Shown in pieces: positions 1 to 62,834 of a DNA stretch of 64,000 bases. Below the pieces are notes generated by a model. It was not told the DNA's origin, did not search any database, and worked only from the letters and a program-made list of their open reading frames with translations. Where the stretch lies: NCBI GenBank assembly GCA_034180415.1, contig JAXFOK010000018.1:12539-76538 (forward strand), read 5' to 3'. The translations under genes and the position numbers were made by a program. Each line of letters begins with the position of its first letter. The first letter of the stretch is position 1. This DNA is from Bdellovibrionota bacterium. GTDB taxonomy: Bacteria > Bdellovibrionota_C > UBA2361 > CAKMMH01.

Positions 1-1
1 T

Positions 2-301
2 GGATTTGCTATTCCAAGTAGATGCGATAAGACTCCAAATAGAAAATGTGCTATTCGAATTTTAGTTGAAAGATATGGGTTTAGAACATTTGAAGTTGCA
101 TATCAAGATGATACAAAAGCTATGTTTAAAAAGCTTTGGCCAAAAGAACATTTCAATATTTTTAGTTTTTCAAATGCAAATGCTCTTGCGCAAGTTGGAA
201 ACAGAGCTGAAAAAATTAAACTTAATGAGCTTAATTTCTCAGGCATAAAAGAATTTATGACGAGAATGCCTCTTGGAAGTAATACTCTAAATATGCAGTA
301 A
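2..301 (+). CDS. 3' end (C-terminal ~99 aa) of a gene that starts upstream of the window; function not recognised
   Basis: Frame 2 is open from position 2 to the TAA at 299-301 and the translation is protein-like (..VERYGFRTFEVAYQDDTKAMFKKLWPKEHFNIF..). The supplied track ORF 66..248 is in a different frame and looks spurious. Confidence 0.4.
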   Translation, partial: GFAIPSRCDKTPNRKCAIRILVERYGFRTFEVAYQDDTKAMFKKLWPKEHFNIFSFSNANALAQVGNRAEKIKLNELNFSGIKEFMTRMPLGSNTLNMQ

Positions 302-452
302 AATTACTAAAATTTGTATCTAATTTGTAAAAAATTTTTAAATTGTCATTATTAAATTAACGATAATCATTAATTATCATCTTTAAGTTATAAATTGAAA
401 AATAACTAACTTATTTCTAATAAAATTTTTATAATTTAAAGGAATAAATAAT

Positions 453-677
453 ATGAAAAAAAACATCAATAAAAATACAAAGAACAAAGAATTCATTAAT
501 AGTCAAATTGAATCAGTACAAACTACAATTGGAGATTTGATAGAAGCTATTTCAAAAATTTCACTTGGAATTTGTAATGACAAAGAGGAAGCTTACAAAT
601 TAACTTCTAAAAGAATTTCTCAAATTCTAGCTCAGAATAATAAAAATTTTAATGATATAAATAATATGGACGCTTAA
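453..677 (+). CDS. hypothetical small protein (74 aa)
   Basis: ORF with an upstream GGAAT purine-rich stretch; composition only, no recognisable domain. Confidence 0.3.
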   Translation: MKKNINKNTKNKEFINSQIESVQTTIGDLIEAISKISLGICNDKEEAYKLTSKRISQILAQNNKNFNDINNMDA

Positions 678-711
678 AAAACATTATTAAGCTAAGTTAT
701 ATTTTTATTTT

Positions 712-1434
712 ATGTTAAAAGTTAAAAATATTTATAAAAATTTTGAAAACTTTGAAGTCCTAAAAGATTTAAATTTTACAGTTTCACCTTCTGAAATTTG
801 TGTTTTCTTAGGCGTAAATGGCGCTGGAAAAACCACGACTATGAAAATACTTGCTGGAATTTTAAAACCAACAAAGGGTGAGATAATAATCGATAATATA
901 AATTTTAAGGATAATCCTAACTACTGTAAAAGTATAACAGGTTACATTCAAGATAGACCATATTTTTATGAAAAATTATCAGTTAGAGAATTCTTAAGAT
1001 TTATTGGTGGACTATATGGGTTAAAAAAAGATATTACAAATGAAAGGATTAAAAAACTTTTAGCCCATTATCAAATAGAAAGTAAAATCGATTCTTTAAT
1101 TGAAAGTTTATCTCATGGAATGAGGCAACGCCTAGCTATTTGTGCAGGTCTTATTCATGAGCCAAAACTCTTAATAATAGATGAACCAATGGTAGGATTA
1201 GACCCATATGGAGCAAAACTTTTAAAAGAATCATTAAAAGAATATGCAAAAAATGGTATGGGAATTTTAGTTTCTACTCATAGTCTTGATGTAGCAGAAG
1301 AGTTAGCAGATAAAATTTTAATTATTGATAAGGGAAAAATAATTAAAAATACATCTTTAAGAGAAATCAAAGAAGATAAAAATTTTAAATCATTAGAAGA
1401 TCTTTTTATAAGTATTACTGATAAAAATTTATGA
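712..1434 (+). CDS. ABC transporter ATP-binding protein
   Basis: Walker A GVNGAGKTTT, signature-like LSHGMRQRLAI, Walker B LLIIDEP. Confidence 0.9.
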   Translation: MLKVKNIYKNFENFEVLKDLNFTVSPSEICVFLGVNGAGKTTTMKILAGILKPTKGEIIIDNINFKDNPNYCKSITGYIQDRPYFYEKLSVREFLRFIGGLYGLKKDITNERIKKLLAHYQIESKIDSLIESLSHGMRQRLAICAGLIHEPKLLIIDEPMVGLDPYGAKLLKESLKEYAKNGMGILVSTHSLDVAEELADKILIIDKGKIIKNTSLREIKEDKNFKSLEDLFISITDKNL

Positions 1435-3032
1435 AGCTATTAATTGCACTTATACCAAGAGTAAAAGAATTAATTAATGAGATGAAAAGTATTATTAAAA
1501 ATCCAGAGAAATCAGGAAGAATAATATTTTTATTAGTAATTTCATCTTTGCTAATTTATGCAACTTATATAGGAACACTTTTTCTAGCCAAATTTTTTCC
1601 AATACCATTTTTTCCGTTAAATTCAATTTTTACAATGCTTTTTGCATTAATATTATTTTCGGGCGCTATAATATCAATAAATGAGTTTTTTGTTTCTAAC
1701 GACTTAAATATATTTTTAAGCAGTCCACTAAAAAGTTTTTATTTTTACTTTGGGAAAATTGTAATAACTATTTTTTCGGCTTCCTGGATGCCAATTGCAC
1801 TTCTCATTCCATGTCTAATTGCTTTTGGTGTATATTATAATCAAGGGGCATTATATTATTTAATGATGCCTATAGTAATAATTCCTATTTTATCTATTCC
1901 GATATTCTTAGGTAATATTTTTGTTTTTCTATTTTCAAAATTAATACCAATAAAAATTTTTAAAGAAGTATTATTCTTTTTTTATATTACTGTATTTTTA
2001 TTAATGGGAGTAATAATAAAAAATTTATTTATAATTAAATATGAAAATTTTAATACAATTCCACCTAACGCCATGCCATATCATAAAGTTTCATATATAT
2101 TAAATGATTTATTACTAAACAAAGGCTTACTAATTAACAACATCTCATATTTGTATATTTTAACTTTATTATTATTATTAATCTCATATTACATTTTTAA
2201 AAAAAGTTATTTTGAAACATTAAATATAATATCATCTTATTCGTCTGCAAAAACTATTGTTATTAAAAAATTAGAATCTTTCTCAGAATATATTACTAGT
2301 TTTTTAGGTATAACAAGGCAACAAATATTTTTTAAAGAATACAAGACATTCTTAAGAAATCTAGGGCAAGCTTCTCAGATTTTCTTATTACTTGGAATAG
2401 TATTTTTATATTTTTCAAATTTAAGTGTTGTCGCAAAGATTTCAAATTTTGATGACAACCCTCTAATTACAACTATTGTAAATTTAGCAGTATGTTCATT
2501 TATATTAATTGCATTTTGTTCTCGATTTATATATCCAAGCCTTTCGTTAGAATCAAAAGCCTATGATATATTTTTAAAAAGTCCTATTAATTTAAAATTA
2601 TTATATAATAGCAAGAAAACTTTTTGGTTATTTTTCTTAAGTATCATTTCTTTGGTAATTTTTATTTCTACATCATTTGTATTAAATTTTACGCCTAAGT
2701 TAATTCTTTTAAGTCTTATATGTGCATTAGTATTACCTTATGGATTAATTAATGTATCTCTTTTTACAGGAAGTTACTTTTTAAAGCTAAACTGGAAGAA
2801 TCCTTATGAACTTTGTTCTTCAATTGGTAGCTTATCATGTATGTTACTAAGCATGTTATATTTATGTTTATCAGCATTATTTGTGTGTAAATTGTATCAA
2901 TATATGAATTTTGAAAACTATAATTTAAAAGTAATGAGCATATTAGTTTTATTTATAATATTTAATATACTAATTGCACGGTTTCTAACTTTTCTAAGTA
3001 TACGAAAATTAAAGGAAAAAATTTTACTTTAA
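1431..3032 (+). CDS. ABC-2-type transporter permease (polytopic membrane protein, 533 aa)
   Basis: 4-bp start/stop overlap with the upstream ATPase gene (operon); highly hydrophobic with many predicted TM helices. Confidence 0.7.
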   Translation: MKLLIALIPRVKELINEMKSIIKNPEKSGRIIFLLVISSLLIYATYIGTLFLAKFFPIPFFPLNSIFTMLFALILFSGAIISINEFFVSNDLNIFLSSPLKSFYFYFGKIVITIFSASWMPIALLIPCLIAFGVYYNQGALYYLMMPIVIIPILSIPIFLGNIFVFLFSKLIPIKIFKEVLFFFYITVFLLMGVIIKNLFIIKYENFNTIPPNAMPYHKVSYILNDLLLNKGLLINNISYLYILTLLLLLISYYIFKKSYFETLNIISSYSSAKTIVIKKLESFSEYITSFLGITRQQIFFKEYKTFLRNLGQASQIFLLLGIVFLYFSNLSVVAKISNFDDNPLITTIVNLAVCSFILIAFCSRFIYPSLSLESKAYDIFLKSPINLKLLYNSKKTFWLFFLSIISLVIFISTSFVLNFTPKLILLSLICALVLPYGLINVSLFTGSYFLKLNWKNPYELCSSIGSLSCMLLSMLYLCLSALFVCKLYQYMNFENYNLKVMSILVLFIIFNILIARFLTFLSIRKLKEKILL

Positions 3033-3154: not shown

Positions 3155-4321
3155 GTGTCACCTATAGAACTTCAGGATAGAGACAAATGGATAAGCGTTC
3201 TTACTGCAATTCCACCGTCTTCAATTTGGACTTACGCTCAGTATTTCCTAATAACTGAGCTGGCTGACAGAAAATGGGAAGCCGAAGAAATATACAGGAA
3301 GCAAAAAAACGAAAGTGAACAAAACCTGGAATCGTTAGATGATTTGACCAAAACTTGGGCAAAAATCATGCTCTTATTGTCCGGGTTGTTCATAATCATT
3401 CTAAAGATCTTCATGCTTGCTTTCTTCTATATCGGCTTCATCAATAAGAATTGCAAAAAGTACATCACTCAAATTGAGAAATCACTCGAGGAAAAAGCTG
3501 ATTGTGCCTGTAAGTCAAAAAAGAATCTAAGAGTAAAAACCGTAGATGAAATTTCGGCTGAAAAAGGAATAACACACTTTGAGGATATGGTTGATAACCT
3601 ATTTAAAAATAGTGCAGATAATATCTACATTAAGGCTTATATAAACAACTTTCTCTCGAGTGTGATGGCAATCGGTCAACGTTGGGCAGTGGCAGAATTA
3701 AACTGCCGAGCAACAGAAAGCTCGCAGGATAGAGCAGAAGCACTATGGCGAGGCGGATTTATGATTAGAGCCTTTGGCTTTGGTACAATTAAGCTTATTC
3801 GTCAGCTTCTAGCGATACTTGCGATTGGTATGGCTGTGCCATTTCTGATCAATCTGTTTGCAAAAACTCCTAACTATTCCATTATAACAAACCTTGCCCA
3901 AGGCATTGGTTGGACGGCGATTCTCTGGGCAATAACGCTTGCGCTTACTCTGTTTTTAAATGATAGGCGTATGGCGAAAATTTGGAAAAGAGCGAAGCTT
4001 GCTTCTCTTTTAGCCCAAAAAACGAGATCGGAAGAATTAATTAAGGTTTTTAATGAGGTGAAAAATGCGATACAAAATTGCTTAACTCCACTCATTAATA
4101 GTATCGAGGATTCCATTTTGAAACTTCTAATTCTCGATAACATGAGACAGATTGATGAACTTATAAAAAGGGAGGAAAGTAAGCTTAAAAACTTTGATAG
4201 CGAAATAGCGATGATAAAACAGAACTTAAATCTAATAGAGAAGATTAAGCAAATCCTAGATACATCGTCGCAAGGAGATGCCATCGAACAACTTACAGAT
4301 GGTATCACAGATGCTTTCTAG
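3155..4321 (+). CDS. membrane protein of unknown function (GTG start; about 4 TM helices plus a C-terminal coiled-coil); GC-elevated, likely horizontally acquired
   Basis: 388-aa ORF whose GC is visibly higher than the flanks. Hydrophobic segments at about aa 70-95 and 205-260, and a heptad-like C-terminus. Isolated between an operon end and a terminator. Confidence 0.65.
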   Translation: MSPIELQDRDKWISVLTAIPPSSIWTYAQYFLITELADRKWEAEEIYRKQKNESEQNLESLDDLTKTWAKIMLLLSGLFIIILKIFMLAFFYIGFINKNCKKYITQIEKSLEEKADCACKSKKNLRVKTVDEISAEKGITHFEDMVDNLFKNSADNIYIKAYINNFLSSVMAIGQRWAVAELNCRATESSQDRAEALWRGGFMIRAFGFGTIKLIRQLLAILAIGMAVPFLINLFAKTPNYSIITNLAQGIGWTAILWAITLALTLFLNDRRMAKIWKRAKLASLLAQKTRSEELIKVFNEVKNAIQNCLTPLINSIEDSILKLLILDNMRQIDELIKREESKLKNFDSEIAMIKQNLNLIEKIKQILDTSSQGDAIEQLTDGITDAF

Positions 4322-4350
4322 ACCAATCGAAGGTTTGTTTCCGAGCACAT

Positions 4351-4389
4351 AAGAGCCGCGTTTTAATCAAAGCGCGACTCTTTTTTTTA
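4351..4389. terminator. bidirectional rho-independent terminator between convergent genes
   Basis: AAGAGCCGCG-ttttaatcaa-AGCGCGACTCTT hairpin followed by T8. Confidence 0.6.
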
Positions 4390-5175
4390 TCTTTTATAAA
4401 CTTTATAATTTTTAGGGATTTTTATATTAAAAACATCTTGTTTTACGTTGACATCATATTCTTTCTTTGTAACAAAGAAATTCATTAGTAATTCATTTTG
4501 AGGAATTATAACATAAAGCGCATTATTTGATTTTTTGATTCGCATTATAAGTTCTTGTCCATTATCTTTCCAATTATCATAAGTAACTAGTGACAAATCT
4601 TTTAAATTAAATTCATAATATTCATTTTTATTTTTACTTACAATTTGAAGAATCTTATAATCTTTATTTTCTAAAATATAAAAATCATAATTATTAACAT
4701 TATCTTTTGTTAAATTATTATTACCTGCAATTATTTCCATAAGGTTTTTATAATCGATATCTTCCTTCCATATTTCTTTAAATATATTTTTTATATCACC
4801 TGTTTTTATTGCAATCTTTTGCTGCCTATCTAAAAACATAGCCTCATTTTCATTTTGGGTTAAAATATGAAGTGATAAAAATGTTTCAGGAGGAAAAGCT
4901 TCTATACGAACAAATTCTTTTTTATCACTTAAATTTTTATCATATATAAATAAGTATCTAAACTTAAACCCCTCACCTTTTTCAATCAAAATGACATCTG
5001 AAAGGACTCGTACATTATTAAAATTTTTATTATTCTCTACTAATTTGTCAAAGAAAACATTTTTCTGCTTATCAGAAACAATATTTTTACTTATATTGGG
5101 AAATGTAATTTTATTACTTGAAAAACATCCTGTAAAAGATATTAAAATAAATAAAATTAATATGAATCTTTTCAC
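4387..5175 (-). CDS. lipoprotein, function unknown
   Basis: N-terminal signal peptide with lipobox-like FTGC, asparagine/lysine-rich. Confidence 0.6.
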   Translation of the reverse strand: MKRFILILFILISFTGCFSSNKITFPNISKNIVSDKQKNVFFDKLVENNKNFNNVRVLSDVILIEKGEGFKFRYLFIYDKNLSDKKEFVRIEAFPPETFLSLHILTQNENEAMFLDRQQKIAIKTGDIKNIFKEIWKEDIDYKNLMEIIAGNNNLTKDNVNNYDFYILENKDYKILQIVSKNKNEYYEFNLKDLSLVTYDNWKDNGQELIMRIKKSNNALYVIIPQNELLMNFFVTKKEYDVNVKQDVFNIKIPKNYKVYKR

Positions 5176-5200
5176 TTTGTCCTCAATTTTTTAAAGCTTA

Positions 5201-6961
5201 TTATAAATCTTCTAACTTATCTTCCATTCTTTCTATTGATTTAAGTTCATCGCCTGATAATTTATCATTCTTTTTAGCTAGACCTAATTTATAGTATTTT
5301 TTAGCAAGTTCTTTATTACCATCTGCTAAATAAACATCTCCTATATGCTCGAAAATAACGATATCATCATCAGCTAAATTAAGTGCTCGAAGTAATAAAT
5401 CGAGTGCTTCTTTATACTCTTCTTGCTTAAACTTAATCCAACCAAGTGTATCAATGTAATAAGGATTCTTAGGATCTTTTTCTAACGCTCTATTTATATA
5501 CTCTAGCGCTTTATCCAGATTAATATTATCTTCTGCCCAAGAATATGCTAAATAATTCAAAGCCTCTGCATAATCAGGATTTTTTGTAAGAATATAATTC
5601 ATTTTTTCAAGTGCTATATCTTTTTTTCCAGATTCATATTGTAAAACTGCATATTGAAAAATTATATCCAAGTCACCAGGTTTTTTCTCAAGAAATTCTA
5701 AAATTAATTTTTCTGAATCAGAGCTTTTTTCTAATTTTCTATAAATCATAATAAGTGTAGTAGCAATTCTTTTATCAAATGGAACATTTTTATAAGCTTC
5801 TTCTAACACTTTTTTTGCGTTATCATCTTTATCTAATTTTCTAAGAACATAAGCTAAAAGTAATTTAGCATCGATATAATTTTTCTTTTCATCATCAAAT
5901 TTAACTTTTTCTAGCTCGGTAGCAGCTTCTTCATATTTTTTTTCTGCTGCATACACAGTACCAAGTGCGTATCTTGCGCCTGTGTGTTCAGGATTAGACG
6001 CTAAAAGCAAGTTTAATTCTTTTGCCGCCTCTTCAGGCATATTTTTTTGCATATATATTAGTGCAATTTTATATCTAACTTCTGCTGTTGCTTCTTTTGA
6101 ATCTTTTAATGCATTAAAATGAGAAAGTGCTTCATCTAGATTATTATCTTGAAGTGAAAGCTCAGCTAAAATTCTTCTTGCTAAAGAATGATTAGGATTT
6201 TTTTCTATAACATTTAGTGCAACTTTTTTGGCATCTTCAAGTTTACCTTGTAAAACTAGTATTCTGCAAAATTCCATTGCAAGCACATCGTTTTCTTTAT
6301 CAAGTTCATAAGCTTGTTTTAATATACTTTCTGCTTTAGAAATATCCTTTTGTTTTTCATAAATTCTAGCTAAATATTGATATGAAATAACATCATCTGA
6401 AAACCTTTCTTTCATTTGTTCTAAAAGCTCTTGGGCTTTTGCTATATCTCCTTCTTCTCTATAAATATCCGCTAAAAGCAAATATGCGTTCTTTTGTTTT
6501 GGATCGTTTTTTAAAATAAACTTATAAGCTTTTTTAGCTTCATCACTTTGAGAAAGAGCTTCACAAAGCCCGGCTTTTATGTAGTAATTATCAAGTTTAA
6601 TTGGCGCTTCTTTAATTGCGATTTTAATTTCATCTAATGCTTTTTCTAGAAGTCCTTCTCTTAAGTAAAGTTCTGCAAGTTTTGAATGGACTGCTGCTGA
6701 GTTTCCTTTTGACAATTCGCCAGCTTTTTTTAAATTACTAAGTGCTGAATCAAAATTTTGATCAAATAAATCCATATTTCCCATTAAAAAATGGTGAAAT
6801 GATGATGACTGTTGTTCCATATTATCTTGCATAAAGCTAACTTTGGAATTTTTTATATCAACAGTTGGCGGTAAATCTGTTGGTGGAACGCTTGAACAAG
6901 CAATAACGACTAAACTAATGATAAAAATTGAAATAAAGATAACTTTTTTCACGCAAATCAC
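5201..6961 (-). CDS. tetratricopeptide-repeat (TPR) protein with N-terminal membrane anchor
   Basis: Repeated A..Y/L..A..A 34-residue helical repeat pattern throughout; N-terminal hydrophobic segment. Confidence 0.8.
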   Translation of the reverse strand: MICVKKVIFISIFIISLVVIACSSVPPTDLPPTVDIKNSKVSFMQDNMEQQSSSFHHFLMGNMDLFDQNFDSALSNLKKAGELSKGNSAAVHSKLAELYLREGLLEKALDEIKIAIKEAPIKLDNYYIKAGLCEALSQSDEAKKAYKFILKNDPKQKNAYLLLADIYREEGDIAKAQELLEQMKERFSDDVISYQYLARIYEKQKDISKAESILKQAYELDKENDVLAMEFCRILVLQGKLEDAKKVALNVIEKNPNHSLARRILAELSLQDNNLDEALSHFNALKDSKEATAEVRYKIALIYMQKNMPEEAAKELNLLLASNPEHTGARYALGTVYAAEKKYEEAATELEKVKFDDEKKNYIDAKLLLAYVLRKLDKDDNAKKVLEEAYKNVPFDKRIATTLIMIYRKLEKSSDSEKLILEFLEKKPGDLDIIFQYAVLQYESGKKDIALEKMNYILTKNPDYAEALNYLAYSWAEDNINLDKALEYINRALEKDPKNPYYIDTLGWIKFKQEEYKEALDLLLRALNLADDDIVIFEHIGDVYLADGNKELAKKYYKLGLAKKNDKLSGDELKSIERMEDKLEDL

Positions 6962-22733: not shown

Positions 22734-23290
22734 ATGAATAACAATTATTTTATAATACATGGAAGTTTTGGAAGCCCATTTAGCAATTGGTTTCCATGGC
22801 TTAGGGAAGAAAATAGAGGTTAAAGGGTTTGATGTATATACGCCAGATTTTCCTAAAGGCGTTGGATTTCCAAATTATAATAATTGGTCTAACTTCCTAA
22901 AATCTTATTTAATGAGTGGAGTATTAAATATAAATTCTATAATATTTGCTCATTCGATAACACCTGTATTCATTTGTAAATTTCTAATAGAAAAATCAAA
23001 TTAAAGTTAAAAGATTAGTTTTTGTGTATGGTTTTAATAATTACCTAGGCATAAATGAAGAGTATTATGCTGTTAATAAAAGTATGTTTTTTGATAATTT
23101 GCGTGATGTAAAAAAGTATTGTAATGACATTGTTTGTTTTTATACAGATAACGATCCTTATGTAAAATTTGAAACAGAAAAAGAATTTACAGATACAATC
23201 GGTGCAAAACAAATTCTTATACCTAATGGTGGCCATTTAAATTCAGAAAGTGGTTTTAGTGAATTTAAAGAATTATTAGAATATATGTAG
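22734..23290 (+). pseudogene. alpha/beta-hydrolase (YdeN/RBBP9-like serine hydrolase) pseudogene with two frameshifts
   Basis: Three consecutive frames give MNNNYFIIHGSFGSPFSNWFPWL / ..KKIEVKGFDVYTPDFP..IIFAHSIT.. / ..CFYTDNDPYVKFE..IPNGGHLN.., which together match the conserved order of YdeN-type esterases. The nucleophile motif has degenerated to AHSIT. Confidence 0.6.
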
Positions 23291-36233: not shown

Positions 36234-36573
36234 GATTCTTTCTCCGATATATATGTTAATGTACTAAAATATTTAAATTTATTAACGAAAAACCTTAGTA
36301 AAATCTTTTAAGACTCTAGCTTTTAAAAAATAAAAAATTGAAAGGTAAAAATATCCTATTTCAAATTTTATAACTAAATTTAAAAAGAAAATTAAAAGAA
36401 ATTACCAACAATTTTAAACTCTAAGAATTTTAACAGCCCCCCCACGATCCGTCAAGATAGCTAAGGAAACGCGCCAAATTCCTTCTTATGCTTACAAGCT
36501 AGTACGTGTATTTTATTTTAAAATTCACTAACGAAATAGTGTTTGAATTATATTGAATTTTTCATTAAAATTT

Positions 36574-37779
36574 TTATTTTTTCTTTAACATATCATTTAA
36601 CACTTCACTTAAATTATTTTTGTATATTTCATTAAATTTAACGTCTATATCATATTTAGTTTTAACATCTTTTAAACTTCTAAAAAACTCTAGCAACTTT
36701 CTCTTTGGATAATTTTCTATTATATATTTTATTAAAAACCCACCACCGATTTTCTTAATAGTAACACTCGCACTGTTATCCAATAAATTCAAAATTTTTT
36801 CGTTATAATCCATACCTGTTAATCCGCCAGTTAGGTATGTAACGATTCCATGTACTACCCAAGAATCGACTAAATTATTATTTTTGAAATATTGTATTAT
36901 TAAATTTTTAGTAGCAAATGTCGTAACATATTTAAAGTAATTATCCAATTTATAGTAGCTCTTTCTTGGATTAAACAAATAAAGTGAAGATTGCATTTCA
37001 GAATAATTGTTATTTGCTGAAAGTTCCTCTAAGTATCCCTCTATTAAAACTTTATTATTACTGAAATCGTACTCAAAAAACTCTTCTAGTAATTCTTTAC
37101 ATTCATTAACTCTTTTATAAACTTCTGATTTAAAAGAATTTATTAAATTATTTTTCCCGTTTATTATTACTTCATTACTTTTCAAAAGTTCTTTTAGTAT
37201 ATCTCTCAAAGATTTACCATAAATTTTAATACAGCATTTATTAGTTTCATTTTGAGATTTTATTTTACTTAATAAATCTAAAAATTGTAGAAAATTATCT
37301 TTACTATACTGTTCAATTAAATATTTAATAAATATTCCTGCACCATCATAATAAAGTCTAATATCCGGATTCTTTTCAAAAAGCTTAAACATATTTATTG
37401 ATATATTACAATTTTCAACTTGATTAGATAAATATACTGATAATCCTTCGCAAAGCCACTTAGGTATAAAATGATTTAAATCTGTATAACAATTTAAAAA
37501 CGCATGCGCAATTTCATGTTTTAAAAGTTTAATGTATTCTTTTTCATTATATTCATTTGCTATACTTTCATAACTACAAATATAGACATTATTATTATCT
37601 GTTAGCCCTACAGCAAAATTACTTAATCCATTATTCAATCTATAAAATGAGTTTTTATCCAATATGTGAATAAATATCATATTATCTGTTATTTTAACTC
37701 GAAAAAAATCATTATATTCATCGATAATTTTGGCTATAATGCCATCTAAATTTACATCATTAGATACGTGAAAAATCAT
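36574..37779 (-). CDS. putative zincin-like metallopeptidase with tandem duplicated MA-like domains (first HEIAH..WLCEGLSVYLS, second degenerate)
   Basis: Start moved to the ATG at 37779, which has a perfect AAGGAG RBS. HExxH followed about 20 aa later by WLxEGLxxYLS, a pattern I associate with peptidase MA-like domains. The second half repeats the fold without HExxH. Paralog at 41962..42627. Confidence 0.55.
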   Translation of the reverse strand: MIFHVSNDVNLDGIIAKIIDEYNDFFRVKITDNMIFIHILDKNSFYRLNNGLSNFAVGLTDNNNVYICSYESIANEYNEKEYIKLLKHEIAHAFLNCYTDLNHFIPKWLCEGLSVYLSNQVENCNISINMFKLFEKNPDIRLYYDGAGIFIKYLIEQYSKDNFLQFLDLLSKIKSQNETNKCCIKIYGKSLRDILKELLKSNEVIINGKNNLINSFKSEVYKRVNECKELLEEFFEYDFSNNKVLIEGYLEELSANNNYSEMQSSLYLFNPRKSYYKLDNYFKYVTTFATKNLIIQYFKNNNLVDSWVVHGIVTYLTGGLTGMDYNEKILNLLDNSASVTIKKIGGGFLIKYIIENYPKRKLLEFFRSLKDVKTKYDIDVKFNEIYKNNLSEVLNDMLKKK

Positions 37780-37929
37780 CTTTATTATATCTCCTTGTAT
37801 AGAAAAAGGCACACATAAGAATAAAATTCTTACATATGCCCTATTAGGATAACATACTCCTACTGCTTCCATCATAAAGGAAAGAAAGCAAAACCTTAAT
37901 GGATTACAACTTAGTTTTAGCTATCCTTA

Positions 37930-38154
37930 TTAATCCATGCAAGTGTCGCAAGGCGGCTTATGACAAATGTAACAACATTCTTCACAAAGACCGTGACAAA
38001 CGCAATTACTCGTCTGAGAGTGATTGTTAGCGGAAAATTCGACATCACAACCATCATCGACGCATTGGTTGGAACTCTCAAAAGATAAATTTTTGCTACA
38101 AGCATTAAAGTCATCATCAAAGATGTCCAACACATGAGGATCGAGCGCAATCAT
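37930..38154 (-). CDS. Cys-rich acidic small peptide (74 aa; 11 Cys, C-terminal ..CVCHGLCEECCYICHKPPCDTCMD); candidate RiPP precursor
   Basis: Lies 5 bp downstream of a PqqD-like gene. This frame is conserved in the paralogous remnant at 42901..43019 (MIALDPHVLDIFDDDF.. vs MIVLNSCVIDVFDGSF..). The overlapping 77-aa ORF 37917..38150 was rejected. Confidence 0.5.
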   Translation of the reverse strand: MIALDPHVLDIFDDDFNACSKNLSFESSNQCVDDGCDVEFSANNHSQTSNCVCHGLCEECCYICHKPPCDTCMD

Positions 38155-38158
38155 AGCA

Positions 38159-38540
38159 CTATTCCTTATTAGTAGAGGTTAATGAAACAACATTACTATT
38201 AAGAAGTCTTAAAAAGAACTTCTTATATTGGGTAACAGTTAAGTCGTTAGTAGATACTAACTTTTTTTCAATGCAACTTTCAACTAATTTGTATCCGTCA
38301 ACATCTAAAAAAAGCCAACCACCATTTTCGCTTGGCATTACCGCTCGAAATCTTCCTTTCAAGTTATTACCTTTTGAAAATCAAGAAAACAATCATTAGG
38401 AATTTCTTCTTTTTGAATTTTTATCTTCACATTTTCCTTAAACAACTCGAAAGCCAAATCTTTTGATAAGACATCACACAGAGGATCAAGACCATCAATT
38501 AATCCTGTATTATCCTCTCCCCGATATCGACACCCTCCCC
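38159..38540 (-). pseudogene. PqqD-like RiPP recognition element (RRE) protein, frameshifted relative to the paralog at 43006..43404
   Basis: Two frames give ..GLIDGLDPLCDVLSKDLAFELFKENVKIKIQKEEIPNDCFLDFQKVIT* and (TTG)KGRFRAVMPSENGGWLFLDVDGYKLVESC..FFLRLLNSNVVSL. These align colinearly with the intact paralog, and no ATG precedes the N-terminal part. A shorter product from the internal ATG (MPSENGG..) remains possible. Confidence 0.5.
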
Positions 38541-38546
38541 TACAAT

Positions 38547-39050
38547 TTACAAAGAGCTTGCAGTATTAAAAATATCATGTACATTAAGCTTCGTCGTTAC
38601 CATATTGCATGTAACATCAAAACCATTATTTAATGCACATTTAATCCCGTCAACTGCCTTTTTGAAACCACCTTTCACACCGCTTACCAATTCGTACACT
38701 TCCTCGCATGAACCCATAAACGATGTTAAGATTCTCCTTAAGCCAAGTTCTTTAAGTTCTCTTGCAATATGATCATTAATATATGTCAAATTTGAATTCA
38801 TCGACATATTAATATGATTTTCTTTTGCAAGAATCAAAAGGTGCTTCACAATTTTGTAATTAAGAAGCGGCTCACCACCAGTAATCACGATACTTTTAAT
38901 TTTATGCTTTTTGATTTCACTAAAAAGCTTATTAGCAGTATATAAAGTCATATGACTTGAGTGAACATTATCTGAATAATCCTTATCAAGCCAATCTCCA
39001 CGCCAAAAATTGTAACAATGTTTGCATTTAATATTACAAACACCGATAGC
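38547..39050 (-). pseudogene. radical SAM enzyme remnant (N-terminal core only; SPASM/C-terminal half missing)
   Basis: The track ORF MTLYTANKLF..ITGGEPLL.. is in frame with an upstream CNIKCKHCYNFW (CxxxCxxC). A TAA lies immediately 5' of the motif (..SVQL*AIGVCNIKC..) with no start codon. The protein ends after about 160 aa of rSAM core and overlaps the PqqD-like gene. Confidence 0.65.
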
Positions 39051-39422
39051 TTACAATTGAACACTAAGGGGTACAGTTAATGATTTATATATCTTATTAA
39101 CCCTTTCATTAATTAAAGGTAAGGATAAGAAAACATCTACTCATATTTTTTGTAACCATTTATAAGCGAGAAATATTTCTACGCATAAAAAGGGGCTGAA
39201 TGAAAAAACTAAATTTTATATTTCTTTAAAATCACACACTCTCTAATATATGTACCGAAAATTAATTAAAAAAAATGTTTTTATTTTGGTAAAAAATTTT
39301 AAATTTATTTTTATAAATATTTTCTCTTGGAGTTTATAGCATCTTAATTCAAAATCCTCTACAGAAACAACTTGTAAAAAATTCAAGTGACATTTTGGAT
39401 AAAATCTAACTAAAGATTTACG

Positions 39423-40139
39423 TCAATCAATGTTATTTACCACATCATATATTGCGTACTCTTTATTATAAATTTTAGCCCATTCCCTATCTCCAAAGCT
39501 AAAGTGCCACCACTCTCCATTAAATGGAGCAAATTCATGACGAATCATAAGCTTTCTTAGCATCAATCTATTTTCAAATTGTTCTTTCGTAATATAGGAA
39601 TTTTTTACAGGTAAATATTCTTCTTTATCAAAATCACCAATTTCACATCCCATATCTAATAATGTATCACCAATTTTTATAGATAAATCGATAGCCCCGC
39701 CTGTTGTATGCCCCGCAACTTTTGGATAAGCAATCATTAAATGAGTTTTTTCAATTTGTTCATCTTGAGATAATAAAGGAAACTTTGCTTTTATATCGTT
39801 AAAAACTTTTTTAAAATTTTCTTCCTGTATTTTTGGATGTCTATACACATTTGAAACCACTAATGAAGCATCTTTATTTATATTTAGTAGTTCTTTGCTT
39901 ATTTCATCTAATTTTTCTGCAATTTCTTTTCTTCCATAGAAAAAAAGATTTCTTATTTCATTATTGTTATCACTAATTGAAAGATACTTTGGAATTCTAA
40001 ATTCAATATTAGGGTTTACCATATCTGGTAAATAGACTAACTCTTTAGAGCTTTCATTAACATTAATAATTACTAAATCAGAAACTAAACTAAAAGTTTC
40101 GAAATCATTTAGTACATAATCATATAATTTATTATCCAT
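39423..40139 (-). CDS. VanX/DdpX-like D-alanyl-D-alanine dipeptidase (peptidase M15D)
   Basis: 238 aa; motifs YRHPKIQ, AGHTTGGAIDLSI (SxHxxGxAxDL) and EWWHF characteristic of VanX-type zinc D,D-dipeptidases. Confidence 0.8.
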   Translation of the reverse strand: MDNKLYDYVLNDFETFSLVSDLVIINVNESSKELVYLPDMVNPNIEFRIPKYLSISDNNNEIRNLFFYGRKEIAEKLDEISKELLNINKDASLVVSNVYRHPKIQEENFKKVFNDIKAKFPLLSQDEQIEKTHLMIAYPKVAGHTTGGAIDLSIKIGDTLLDMGCEIGDFDKEEYLPVKNSYITKEQFENRLMLRKLMIRHEFAPFNGEWWHFSFGDREWAKIYNKEYAIYDVVNNID

Positions 40140-40255
40140 AGTCTCTATAAATTAAATAAAAAAATGCAAGCCACTAGGATAGTATAATTTAATGGTTTTC
40201 ATATGTCACGATTTCTACCAATAAAGCAGAAGATACAACATTTAGAGAAGATCTC

Positions 40256-40849
40256 TTAGTGAAGAGACCTCCGAACCATGAAAATCCGCCTATCTCTTAC
40301 GGGAGCATCGCCAAGTCTTCGCTGACTGACGTATTCTTTCGTCCCGTCAAGGAGCGAGAATCCAGATTTGAGGAACAGGTTCTTCGATGCGACATTTTTT
40401 TCTGTCGTACGAACAATCATGTTCGTATCAGGATACTCTTCCTTAAGCTTGTTAACAAGACAAGCAGCGAACCCATTACCACGCCACTCGGGAGCAGTAA
40501 GGATTTCTGCGACATAAAGATAATTTTGAGGCTCATCAATATTATCTTTAATCGCCTTTAAAACCTTCTCTTCATGTTCCAGGTTGTATGCCACCAAATA
40601 GCTATAAACTTGCCCGGTGGACACATCAACAAGAGCAAAGATCGAAGAATTAGGGGTGGACCACTTTTCCTTTGCAAGTTTCATGACATCGTCATGAGTA
40701 AACTTTTCTTGGTAAGGTGGCGCACCAAAACAAAGAACATACAGGGAGGTATACTGCGATGACGAATCACCGAAAATGGCCTCAGAAATCTTGACGATTT
40801 TCACGGCCTCCCAATCCAAGCACGACATCTTTTGGGTTTGTCGTTTCAT
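40256..40849 (-). CDS. GNAT-family N-acetyltransferase (GC-elevated)
   Basis: 197 aa; acetyl-CoA-binding motif ..VAEILTAPEWRGNGFAACLV.. and ..EKNVASKNLFLKSGF..; coding GC clearly above the background. Confidence 0.75.
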   Translation of the reverse strand: MKRQTQKMSCLDWEAVKIVKISEAIFGDSSSQYTSLYVLCFGAPPYQEKFTHDDVMKLAKEKWSTPNSSIFALVDVSTGQVYSYLVAYNLEHEEKVLKAIKDNIDEPQNYLYVAEILTAPEWRGNGFAACLVNKLKEEYPDTNMIVRTTEKNVASKNLFLKSGFSLLDGTKEYVSQRRLGDAPVRDRRIFMVRRSLH

Positions 40850-40924
40850 GATAAAACCTCATATGTTTTATAATGGGAGTTAACGACTAGAAAATCAAAA
40901 GAACACTTTTCCCTTTAAAACTTT

Positions 40925-41788
40925 CTAATCATCTAAGAACAATTCTCCTTTAGCTATCACATCTACGATGCCTCCAATTGAGACACTTTCAACATACAAA
41001 GCATCAGAAGATAACCTAACTTCTAACTCGATTGATTTCTTAGACGGTTGATATATCCGTTCCTTAAAATCTCTCTTGTTATTCAACGCGCTTACTATAC
41101 CAAATGCTGCGGTTCCTGAACCGCATGCTGTTTCATAATATGTACTATCGGTATCTCGTACCCAAACGACAGGATTAATAAAAACCCCATTATCATTTTT
41201 TTGTACAAATATTAATCCTACTGCACTTTCATTTTGTAATTCCAAACTATCTCTCACATGTTTTGAGAATTCGACATAATTATCTTTTCTGAACTTAAAG
41301 TGTGGTTCATTCAAAATAACGTGAGTAATACCACTAAGATAAGTAACAAAAACTTTGTAGCCATCTAAAAGTTTTTCTTCAACATGATTTTTAGTTGAAA
41401 GATAAACTTTAGTATTTATTTTACTCCCGTCCCTAAAACATTCACCTTTAACTTTTTCATTAACCCCAGAAACAGATAAATAGCATTCCCAATGATTTTC
41501 ACCAATAGACTTTAATGATTTTGAATCTTCAAAGAGTAAAAGCGCCAAGACGCTTCTTGTAGCATTTCCACAAAACTCTCCACCCATCATATCTAGTCTT
41601 GGAGTACCCTCTTCAAGATAACTTACGACTCCGACCTGCTCTCCACCAAGATGCAATGGGTCTAGAATCTTATTTGAAATCAAAGCACGGTATCTAGCAT
41701 CCATTGAATCTTTATTTTTAATGAGAACCGTCGTGTTTCCACTAGGGCTCATTTTATAAAAGCTGTACGTAGTCATAACAAAAAACAT
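40925..41788 (-). CDS. DapF-family PLP-independent amino-acid epimerase (diaminopimelate-epimerase-like, two catalytic Cys)
   Basis: 287 aa; ..SGNTTVLI.. (GNDF-like), ..GGEFCGNATRS.. (QCGNGARC-like) and ..YETACGSGTAAFGI.. (ETxACGSGAxA-like) give both DapF active-site cysteines. Confidence 0.7.
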   Translation of the reverse strand: MFFVMTTYSFYKMSPSGNTTVLIKNKDSMDARYRALISNKILDPLHLGGEQVGVVSYLEEGTPRLDMMGGEFCGNATRSVLALLLFEDSKSLKSIGENHWECYLSVSGVNEKVKGECFRDGSKINTKVYLSTKNHVEEKLLDGYKVFVTYLSGITHVILNEPHFKFRKDNYVEFSKHVRDSLELQNESAVGLIFVQKNDNGVFINPVVWVRDTDSTYYETACGSGTAAFGIVSALNNKRDFKERIYQPSKKSIELEVRLSSDALYVESVSIGGIVDVIAKGELFLDD

Positions 41789-41961: not shown

Positions 41962-42627
41962 TTACTTATTATTTTCGCCTAATATTTCATTTAAAACTTC
42001 TTTAATATCTTTATTGTAATGTTTCATAAATATAATACTTACTTCATTGCTACTCTTAAGATTTCTTAACTCATTGAAAAATTCTAAAAATTTTTTATTA
42101 CCATAAGTTTCTATAAGATGTTTTACAAAGATTCCCCCACCTTAATAAATTACATTTGGTAAAATATTATCATTAAATAATGTTTCCAAATCTTTACAAA
42201 CTTCGCCACTTATCATCTGTCCTGATAAATATCTTGCTAGTCCTTCATGCAACCAATTTGGAACGTACTTATTAAAATTAACATACATATACGCATATAC
42301 ATGTACTATTTCATGTTTAATTAATTTTTTATATTCGATATCGTTATATATATTTTTTATATCATCATGATTACAGATAAAAATAATATTAGAACGAGGG
42401 CAAGCAAACGCTACGACATAATCTTCCTTAATACTTTTAAATTCATCAAATATTTCTTTTTTCATTGAAAAAACGCAAACACTAAATTCATCATTAGGAA
42501 TATTAAAAAAAACTGAATATTCTTTAGATGTTTCTTCTATACATTTATTAAGTTCTATATCATTATTTGGAAAAATATTATAAAGCATACTATCTCTCAT
42601 TAAAAAAGAGCAGGGACAAAAAATCAT
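41962..42627 (-). pseudogene. single-domain paralog of the MA-like metallopeptidase, interrupted by a frameshift/stop at about 42142
   Basis: The track ORF (..LIKHEIVHVYAYMYVNFNKYVPNWLHEGLARYLSG..) stops at 42142. The next frame continues with ..GGGIFVKHLIETYGNKKFLEFFNELRNLK..NEILGENNK*, which matches the C-terminal part of 36574..37779. The first codons lie inside a terminator hairpin. Confidence 0.55.
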
Positions 42628-42635
42628 CCCTGCTC
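42602..42635 (-). terminator. rho-independent terminator on the minus strand (GAGCAGGGA-loop-TCCCTGCTC + T6) between the RRE/peptide module and the peptidase paralog
   Basis: Perfect 9-bp stem followed by TTTTTT on the transcribed strand; the annotated ATG of the peptidase paralog sits in the loop. Confidence 0.5.
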
Positions 42636-42900
42636 AAGCAAGCTGTTATCAAATTTCTAGAAATTTTACTCTGCCTTTAACGACGATAAAAACCTTATTC
42701 ACGGTTTAAGCCTCTTAAGGTGTAACACTGTTTCATTGAGGTTCACCATCAACACAAATTCTTTAGCAAAGTTCAAAGTATTCAAAATTACGGCCCACAT
42801 GGATCTTGCGATCAACAATACTCAAAACTTGCGGATTGATTTCTTTTATCTTAGCACTCCTTATGTTAGAACGATTAACATCACCATTGTAATAGCAAAC

Positions 42901-43019
42901 TCAGTGACAGATATGCCGGTAGCAATTACAACCACAGTAAAATGCATTATGAAATTCTAATTACTAGCTTTAAAGCTACCATCAAACACATCAATAACGC
43001 AAGAGTTAAGTACAATCAT
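42901..43019 (-). pseudogene. remnant of a second Cys-rich precursor-like peptide (broken by a stop and a frameshift)
   Basis: MIVLNSCVIDVFDGSFKASN* then, in the adjacent frame, ..EFHNAFYCGCNCYRHICH*. The N-terminus parallels the leader of the 37930..38154 peptide. It overlaps the PqqD-like gene end by 14 bp. Confidence 0.4.
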
Positions 43020-43404
43020 AACGTTGTTCCTTATGACTAGGGGTTAATGAAACTATATTACTGTTAAGAAGCCTTAAGAAGAACTCCTTATTTTCAGTAA
43101 TTACCTGAGCATTAGTAGACACTAATACTTTTTGCACACACTGTTCTATTAAGTTGTAACCATCAACATTTACAAATAGCGACCTACCATTTTTACCTAG
43201 TATTACAGCACCAAAGTCTTCCTCTCGAGTTACCACTCCTTCAAAATCAAGATAGTAATCATTAGGAATTTCTTCCATATATTTTATCTTAACCTTATTT
43301 TTACTATATAACTCAAGAGAAATATCTTTCGAAGATACCTCAAAAAGCGGATCAAGTCCATCGACTGACTTCTGAAAGCTACCTTTTCCTAAAATAAATA
43401 TCAA
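43006..43404 (-). CDS. PqqD-like RRE protein (intact copy; probable true start at internal ATG 43278, giving about 90 aa)
   Basis: ..DFEGVVTREEDFGAVILGKNGRSLFVNVDGYNLIEQCVQKVLVSTNAQVITENKEFFLRLLNSNIVSL.. fits the PqqD/RRE pattern (V..RE.DGG.LL.n..g..f.LN..G..IW.......T...I......FL..L...GLI). The annotated start is TTG without an SD. Confidence 0.55.
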   Translation of the reverse strand: MIFILGKGSFQKSVDGLDPLFEVSSKDISLELYSKNKVKIKYMEEIPNDYYLDFEGVVTREEDFGAVILGKNGRSLFVNVDGYNLIEQCVQKVLVSTNAQVITENKEFFLRLLNSNIVSLTPSHKEQRYDCT

Positions 43405-62253: not shown

Positions 62254-62319
62254 AGTTTTTAAAAAGAAATATTTTTTATGATTCAAGAATTATAACCTAA
62301 AAAAACTTATTATAATAAT

Positions 62320-62834
62320 ATCATTATTGAAACAAAGAGACTTATTTTACGTAACTTAACACTAGATGATTCAGATGATGTTTTAAGTGGTGTGGCGACC
62401 CCGATGTTACAAAGTTTGTAAGTTATAACACATATAATAATACTAATGAAGTTAGAGAATATCTTAAGTGGGTAATATCTGAAAATTAAAATCCAGATCA
62501 TTTAATCGCAGGAGTAGTAACAAAAGCTACAAATGAATTAATAGGAAGTTGCACTATATGTTACGAAAAAGATAGAGATATCTGGTCTATGGGATACACC
62601 TTTAGAAAAGATACTTGGGGACATGGTTACGCTACAGAAGCTATGCAAGGTCTTATAGATTACATTAAAAAATTTAGGACAATGAGAGGAATTGAAGGAT
62701 GTGTTGTAAATGAAAATCCTGAAAGTCAACGTGTACTTGAAAAATCAGGAATGACATTTCTTAAGGACGTTACACTTTCTAAAATAGATGGTACTCAAAC
62801 CTTTAAAGGAAAAAAATTTCGAAAGATATTTTAG
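62320..62834 (+). pseudogene. GNAT (RimL/YoaA-like) N-acetyltransferase pseudogene: lost ATG, a +1 frameshift near 62370-62395, and an in-frame TAA at 62487..62489
   Basis: Frame 1 gives IIETKRLILRNLTLDDSDDVLS; frame 2 continues WCGDPDVTKFVSYN..EVREYLKWVISEN*NPDHLIAGVVTKATNELIGS..GYTFRKDTWGHGYATEAMQGLIDY..VNENPESQRVLEKSGM.., the canonical GNAT order. Confidence 0.6.

Follow-up and report, generated by a model that had tools for sequence, protein, structure and literature searches.

A Radical-SAM/SPASM-RRE Maturase Gene Decayed to a Pseudogene in an Uncultured Bdellovibrionota Bacterium

Introduction

PapB and CteB, the ranthipeptide maturases of freyrasin and SCIFF, are radical-SAM/SPASM enzymes that make Cys-to-Asp/Glu/Thr non-alpha thioethers, and in CteB, as in most sacti- and ranthipeptide maturases, the RRE is N-terminal. 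Freyrasin itself carries six Cys-Asp links (PMC8326336). Proteusin epimerases of the PoyD/OspD type carry the radical-SAM cluster only, without a SPASM domain (PMC8326336). Here we describe a locus in a 64,000-nt stretch of DNA from a Bdellovibrionota bacterium (the window; all positions refer to it) that shares with PapB and CteB a radical-SAM core and, in its intact paralog, the SPASM seven-Cys motif, but in which the maturase gene of the window is a pseudogene.

We hold with high confidence that 39092..38159 on the minus strand is a unitary pseudogene of one RiPP maturase, and that the damage is real and not sequencing error. As an ordinary pseudogene of an uncharacterized radical-SAM/SPASM-RRE maturase family it will not surprise a specialist. 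It also points to an uncharacterized, conserved three-gene RiPP cassette, the intact copy of which (the maturase P0001, a 64-aa peptide and a 416-aa peptidase) would suit heterologous expression, and the nested strain-level lesions of the relic make a clean small case of how a pseudogene decays step by step in an uncultured gut bacterium.

A Fragmented Maturase Gene

A protein search with the concatenated relic translation found P0001, an intact 451-aa radical-SAM paralog that lies on a different contig in the two NCBI MAGs holding the window locus (accessions MDD7473738.1 and MDY6089631.1; window proteins are numbered MDD74737xx and MDY60901xx). In tblastn against the window, P0001 residues 1-179 aligned to 39092..38556 at 69% identity, residues 312-383 to 38562..38347, and residues 383-443 to 38350..38168. 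The three matching pieces lie in three different frames, and residues 180-311 are missing. The relic and its recognizable parts, all on the minus strand, are as follows.

38159..39092, minus: whole maturase relic (cassette copy B), running from the lost start codon down to a TAG stop (38159..38161), delimited by tblastn of P0001
39015..39038, minus: CxxxCxxC radical-SAM cluster motif CNIKCKHC, from translation
38862..38879, minus: SAM-binding motif GGEPLL, from translation
38547..38549, minus: TAA ending the N-terminal frame just past the deletion junction, after NTASSL and 167 codons beyond the first TAA
38530..38562, minus: remaining SPASM motif tail CKLFVNCRGGC (CX5CX3C), out of frame, from translation and tblastn
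38168..38380, minus: relic of the C-terminal RRE (PqqD-fold) domain, aligning to P0001 residues ~372-443
Frame a, minus, conceptual translation: ...KIYKSLTVPLSVQL, stop, AIGVCNIKCKHCYNFW...ITGGEPLL...NTASSL, stop
Frame b, minus, conceptual translation: CKLFVNCRGGCRYRGEDNTGLIDGLDPLCDV...DFQKVIT, stop (TGA at 38359..38361), KEDF
Frame c, minus, conceptual translation: RAVMPSENGGWLFLDVDGYKLVESCIEKKLVSTNDL...SLTSTNKE, stop at 38159..38161

Frame a matched the radical-SAM family PF04055 in Pfam (80.7 bits, cut-off 29.5, E=1.8e-22), so the radical-SAM resemblance is real and beyond chance. The match and the motifs are evidence of ancestry only. What remains is not a functional radical-SAM gene: Met1 reads ATA, codon 14 reads TAA, and residues 180-311 are deleted. 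Of the seven-Cys SPASM motif the relic keeps only CX5CX3C, out of frame.

Comparison with intact homologs revealed five lesions, again on the minus strand.

39090..39092, minus: lesion 1, lost start, ATA in place of ATG at Met1, from DNA comparison with the paralog contig L001
39051..39053, minus: lesion 2, Glu14 GAA to TAA, four codons ahead of the first Cys
38556..38562, minus: lesion 3, junction (overlap TGCAAGC) of an out-of-frame deletion of 403 nt in P0001 coordinates
38359..38361, minus: lesion 4, Arg CGA to TGA; CGA in 12/12 other related contigs covering the site
38347..38348, minus: lesion 5, 1-bp deletion (TTC-G^AGCG); GGA in 12/12 other related contigs covering the site

A GAAAGG ribosome-binding site is kept upstream of the ATA, as in the intact paralog, and no ATG, GTG or TTG start occurs between the upstream stop and the TAA at 39051..39053. 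The 403-nt deletion, which removes P0001 residues 180-311, takes C200, C240, C256, C274 and C309, among them four of the seven SPASM-motif cysteines. In P0001 the ends of the deleted segment read TGCAAGCTT and TGTAAGCTT, with the repeat TG(C/T)AAGCTT at both, which suggests a deletion between short direct repeats.

Two other ways of reading the broken frames were considered and set aside. A genetic code in which TGA means Trp is contradicted by the long ORFs, which stay open under table 11, and by the relatives, in which CGA (Arg) stands opposite the TGA. Programmed frameshifting or readthrough would have to bridge five lesions, which vary among lineages, and essential Cys ligands are lost.

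The C-terminal piece has a recognizable fold: the AF2 model, which is of the in-frame paralog fragment and not of the relic, predicts a winged helix-turn-helix with a three-stranded beta-sheet followed by helices, resembling known RREs. At E<=0.1 no relic piece matched the Pfam PqqD model PF05402, and neither did the 132-aa paralog fragment; P0001, P0004 and P0013 gave no match at E<=1. In P0001, and in all 22 homologs that share the R-x-E-x-FG motif, the domain is a C-terminal fusion to the radical-SAM protein. Each of these full-length homologs (22/22) has a radical-SAM core, the cysteine pattern CX9-15GX4C...CX2CX5CX3C, and then a C-terminal extension of 87-139 aa; given this common layout, the PqqD-like piece is the C-terminal domain of the maturase, and the N-terminal core and PqqD-like tail are one ancestral gene, now abutting at the 403-nt deletion.

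These results bear on a sequence-only reading of the window, which had pointed to CNIKCKHC and GGEPLL, a TAA immediately before the Cys motif, and a frame with no start codon. All three were borne out, at the positions listed above. The frame was also said to be short and to lack SPASM; short it is, but the last three SPASM cysteines survive out of frame. That the downstream part would need a frameshift to match a paralog at 43006..43404 proved right, with a G missing at 38348/38347 and the TGA at 38359..38361 in addition. That paralog, for its part, is no more than a piece of a further decayed copy. A separate, overlapping PqqD-like gene had been proposed as well, and this proved wrong: the piece belongs to the same ancestral protein, as its C-terminal domain, and the 403-nt deletion has brought it next to the core.

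In public annotation, NCBI PGAP names the relic a "radical SAM protein" of 161/166 aa (MDD7473797.1, MDY6090149.1; 38547..39047, minus), without a pseudogene flag, the two products beginning at ATT and ATC codons of the window. Our analysis corrects this annotation: the three ORF fragments are one gene.

Decay Within the Population

Assemblies other than that of the window carry the same sequence.

L024/L027, Logan SRR21357815: 42690..35018, 1 mismatch, 0 gaps
L026, NCBI GCA_028724725.1: 42154..33930, 4 mismatches, 0 gaps
L028, Logan SRR21357823: 38800..37504, 100%, 0 gaps
L029, SRR20662467: 38341..37301, 100%, 0 gaps
L025, SRR20662467: 41646..38365, 13 mismatches, 0 gaps

Together these contigs, which represent three runs assembled by Logan and one NCBI MAG, are 99.6-100% identical to the window and gap-free over the lesions that they cover, a reproducibility of assemblies, not of reads, in which some assemblies may go back to the same raw data as the MAG that the window comes from. 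To these we added a population alignment of 15 further ENA metagenome contigs, 97-99% identical to the window and drawn from metagenome samples, some labelled gut metagenome.

The lesions differ in how widely they are shared. The deletion junction at 38556..38562 is gap-free in 14/14 related contigs spanning it, and ATA stands at codon 1 in every related contig reaching that codon. The TAA at codon 14 is present in nine of 16 sequences (the window and the 15 contigs), the Glu14 codon having T in the window and eight contigs (L016-L023) and G in L007 and L010-L015. The TGA at 38359..38361 and the 1-bp deletion at 38347/38348 are restricted to the window haplotype. Other lineages have separate 1-bp deletions, at 38715 in L010-15, leading to 123-aa products (P0121/P0132), and at 39023 in L021-23. 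Protein-cluster members, among those listed, end in NTASSL followed by a stop, or stop earlier through the 38715 frameshift.

Polymorphism in the N-terminal part of the relic comprises three synonymous and 18 nonsynonymous sites, one stop and two indels, and in the C-terminal part four synonymous and nine nonsynonymous sites, one stop and one indel; these counts are small, and metagenome contigs may be chimeric consensus sequences. Pairwise piN/piS is 1.22 in the relic, compared with 0.02 in the adjacent NuoE- and NuoF-like genes. The relic drifts neutrally as a pseudogene within the population. The gene thus shows five lesions relative to intact homologs, recurrence in other assemblies, and neutral substitution.

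Among the neighboring genes, the NuoE-like gene is split in L016 (6720..7242; 91 + 76 aa), elsewhere being 172 aa long; either the assembly is at fault or, perhaps, this strain has a lesion of its own.

The Intact Paralog and Its Family

The intact cassette, which we call copy A, was found on six contigs (L001-L006) and comprises the 451-aa radical-SAM protein, a 64-aa peptide, and a 416-aa Peptidase_MA_2-like protein. Given the shared MAG accessions and the fact that L002 (copy A) and L026 (window locus) are contigs of one assembly, the genome most likely retains this one intact cassette, a placement that rests on MAG binning. Copy A was seen only on contigs of <=17 kb, the window locus on contigs of up to 434 kb, and in L005 copy A lies near an ORF6N-domain protein (515..1501); copy A may be in a variable or mobile region.

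The SPASM motif of P0001 reads C256-X13-G-X4-C274 and C309-X2-C-X5-C-X3-C322. In hmmscan, PF13186 was matched by its relatives P0004 and P0013, whereas P0001 itself did not reach it. The C-terminal regions of copies A, B and the further copy C (see below) are 51-62% identical to one another, which marks the copies as old paralogs; for the RRE-containing C-terminal regions of A and B the figure is 58%.

Distant relatives on L030 and L032 show a radical-SAM-RRE gene, a 41-46-aa peptide ending ...CDCATDCDQ, and an MA peptidase of ~210 aa. On L032 the full cassette is present twice (1..1221 and 4001..5486), 4265 bp apart and with identical 46-aa peptides, which could mean that the cassette was duplicated in tandem, or that the assembly ran more than once around a small circular element. 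A search of genome contigs with P0001 returned only two distant radical-SAM genes, in Dehalococcoidales and Desulfovibrionaceae MAGs, and no orthologous locus. With the 132-aa C-terminal fragment, phmmer against 1.84 billion representatives gave three matches, a number that is no gauge of family size and probably reflects cluster representatives that are fragments.

Precursor, Peptidase, and Further Cassette Copies

Downstream of the relic, the cassette of the window follows the order of copy A: relic, 74-aa ORF, peptidase.

37930..38154, minus: 74-aa Cys-rich precursor ORF, opening MIALDPHVLDIFDDDF, with leader ...LDPHVLDIFDDDF... and core ...CVCHGLCEECCYICHKPPCDTCMD, from translation
36574..37779, minus: intact two-domain Peptidase_MA_2-like protein (PF13485) with an HEIAH motif, a putative leader peptidase

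The 74-aa ORF occupies the same slot as the 64-aa ORF in the intact operon, and the two precursors have in common a leader motif, L(D/N)PxVLxIFDDxF, and a core end, C(D)xCMD. All 15 cluster members among those listed are 74 aa long. Precursor polymorphism runs to four synonymous and 11 nonsynonymous sites (piN/piS 0.69); the ATG is changed to ATT in L007, and a Cys of the conserved terminal CxxCMD to Arg in L011 and L021-23. Judging from this site ratio, the start loss and the Cys replacement, the precursor is probably under relaxed constraint too.

The peptidase is 401 aa long from the ATG at the 37779 end, or 433 aa from an upstream ATG at 37875. It matched PF13485 at 33.9 bits (cut-off 32.4), and it is 51% identical to the peptidase of the copy A operon. 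With four synonymous and three nonsynonymous sites (piN/piS 0.22) and no disabling lesions, it appears to be still constrained. Neither precursor had a Pfam or NCBIfam match, and the peptidase had none in NCBIfam. Across 36234..37929 (minus), which spans the peptidase and both flanking spacers, diversity is ~0.002-0.003 (piS 0.006), and piS in neighboring genes is 0.03-0.10; this could be a local sweep or a recombination tract.

A third cassette copy, C, lies at 41962..43404 (minus) and is more decayed than copy B.

43033..43359, minus: radical-SAM fragment of copy C, in frame, covering P0001 residues 335-443 only (tblastn), inside the ORF 43006..43404
42901..43019, minus: broken precursor relic of copy C, MIVLNSCVIDVFDGSFKASN followed by a stop, then CGCNCYRHICH and a stop in another frame, from translation
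41962..42588, minus: single-domain MA peptidase of copy C with TCA changed to TAA at 42142..42144, intact at 208/221 aa in other strains

Between the cassette copies (39423..41788, minus) are an M15 D-Ala-D-Ala-dipeptidase-like gene, a GNAT gene, and a CntK-like histidine racemase gene; the racemase scored 124 bits with NF052224, below the cut-off of 400, and in L017 and L018 its gene is broken into parts of 232 and 70 aa. Elsewhere in the window, a hydrolase gene at 22734..23290 (plus) needs two frame changes and has a nucleophile motif reading AHSIT, and a GNAT gene at 62281..62834 (plus) is frameshifted near 62370 and also interrupted by an in-frame stop (SEN, stop, NPD). Both look like pseudogenes, and the genome therefore seems rich in decaying genes.

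How the Locus May Be Read

Whether the gene is a pseudogene or the assembly carries indel errors had been left undecided by the sequence-only reading, which had likened the damage to that in the GNAT and hydrolase genes (similar lesions are indeed seen there: frameshifts in both, plus the in-frame stop in GNAT) and had proposed comparison with related loci. That comparison, in 15 metagenome contigs, showed nested, lineage-specific lesions, and the pseudogene half of the alternative stands. For a gene intact in the organism, its stops and frameshifts being assembly or sequencing errors in AT-rich homopolymer sequence, speak the ~30% GC of the region and the one lesion that is a 1-bp deletion in a GG dinucleotide. 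We nevertheless find error hardly credible: three lesions are substitutions (ATG to ATA, GAA to TAA, CGA to TGA) and one is a 403-nt deletion common to every related contig spanning the junction, gap-free matching contigs come from three other runs and another MAG and from different assemblers, the lesions are nested along lineages, and substitution is neutral. It also seems very improbable that the remnants still work as split proteins, a minimal radical-SAM protein of 134-169 aa and a stand-alone PqqD-like RRE presenting the 74-aa precursor to the intact paralog. In favor, PGAP does annotate a protein for the N-terminal part, L007, L010, L016, L017 and L021-23 have the RRE part as an unbroken 90-aa ORF, and stand-alone PqqD-type RRE proteins are established in other RiPP systems (RRE-Finder, PMC7470986). 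The N-terminal part, however, has no canonical start, stops partway through the barrel, lacks every auxiliary cluster, is independently frameshifted in two other lineages, and has nonsynonymous and synonymous sites at 18:3; the RRE ORF, at 9:4, is broken in the window by the TGA and the frameshift, and a fused RRE is already part of the intact paralog.

A different question is whether the locus still makes a product: copy A would modify the 74-aa precursor in trans, the local peptidase would trim it, and the loss would be limited to a redundant maturase. An intact precursor ORF in the window, the uniform 74-aa length of the listed cluster members, the leader motif and core end in common with copy A's precursor, a lesion-free peptidase with piN/piS of 0.22, and the presence of copy A in the same MAGs all fit this. 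We consider it unlikely all the same, given the 11:4 ratio of nonsynonymous to synonymous sites in the precursor (piN/piS 0.69), its start loss in L007 and the Cys-to-Arg change in CxxCMD in L011 and L021-23, the identity of only 58% between the RRE-containing C-termini of copies A and B, and a low diversity of the peptidase that may reflect a local sweep and not constraint. We therefore retain the reading of the maturase as a pseudogene. The relic locus is unable to yield a functional maturase; with the maturase dead, the copy B system is unable to work alone, and assembly quality is not the cause.

The ancestor was a protein of ~450 aa whose radical-SAM core stood at the N-terminus, followed by a SPASM domain for the auxiliary clusters and, fused at the C-terminus, an RRE of PqqD fold that presumably bound the leader peptide; its gene headed a three-gene cassette of maturase, Cys/Asp-rich precursor peptide, and MA-type metallopeptidase. 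An order of events can be proposed from there. Two lesions probably came first, since every related contig covering them has them: the 403-nt deletion, apparently between short direct repeats, which cost the end of the barrel and four SPASM cysteines and shifted the frame, and loss of the ATG. Different secondary lesions would have followed in different lineages as the relic drifted neutrally; the lineage of the window has the TAA at codon 14, the TGA in the RRE domain, and the 1-bp deletion.

Relation to Described Maturases

P0001 fell below the cut-off of every curated NCBIfam radical-SAM/SPASM family. Its best matches included AhbD (98 bits, cut-off 500), GeoRSP (88 bits), ScmE (79 bits) and TIGR04053 (79 bits), the last three with cut-offs of 395-500. 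Since the precursors, too, are without a match, the cassette represents an uncharacterized member of the radical-SAM/SPASM RiPP systems. It resembles the systems that Haft and Basu described in silico (GeoRSP, SynChlorMet ScmE/F, ACGX, TIGR04053) in having a small adjacent Cys-rich peptide. Our literature search found no description of a cassette of radical-SAM-RRE protein, precursor and MA peptidase. A far-reaching reading would make it an undescribed RiPP class, defined by a radical-SAM/SPASM enzyme whose RRE is C-terminal, a precursor of 40-75 aa with a Cys/Asp-rich core at its end (...CDCxxDCDQ or ...CDxCMD), and an MA-type metallopeptidase, with a product that is maybe multiply thioether-bridged or metal-binding. 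The genome would then hold three paralogs of the cassette, each at a different stage of decay, with the orphan precursor and peptidase of copy B still serviced in trans by the one intact maturase. Taken as a whole, we regard this as quite unlikely.

Homology to PqqE can be detected (TIGR02109, 69 bits; structure 6c8v, E=2e-5), but the TIGR02109 score is far under the PqqE cut-off of 381. Unlike PqqD, the RRE of the window family is fused to the C-terminus of the enzyme and not encoded by a separate gene, and it has no PF05402 match; the precursor of the window, in turn, is Cys/Asp-rich and without the Glu-x3-Tyr motif of PqqA-like peptides. The proteusin epimerases of the PoyD/OspD type share the position of the RRE, C-terminal to the radical-SAM core (PMC8326336), whereas the window family has the full SPASM Cys motif and an unrelated type of precursor.

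The likeness to the ranthipeptide maturases PapB and CteB extends to an RRE that presumably binds the leader, and to a short precursor with a Cys- and Asp/Glu-rich C-terminal core. P0001 is nevertheless not of PapB type (67.3 bits with NF047865, cut-off 340), and the CteB structure 5wgg matched the P0001 family at only E=2e-4. In contrast to CteB, the RRE is C-terminal in the window family, and the window cassette differs from both systems in carrying an MA-type metallopeptidase. By analogy with ranthipeptides such as freyrasin, the most likely chemistry of an intact cassette would be the formation of thioether crosslinks from Cys to acidic residues.
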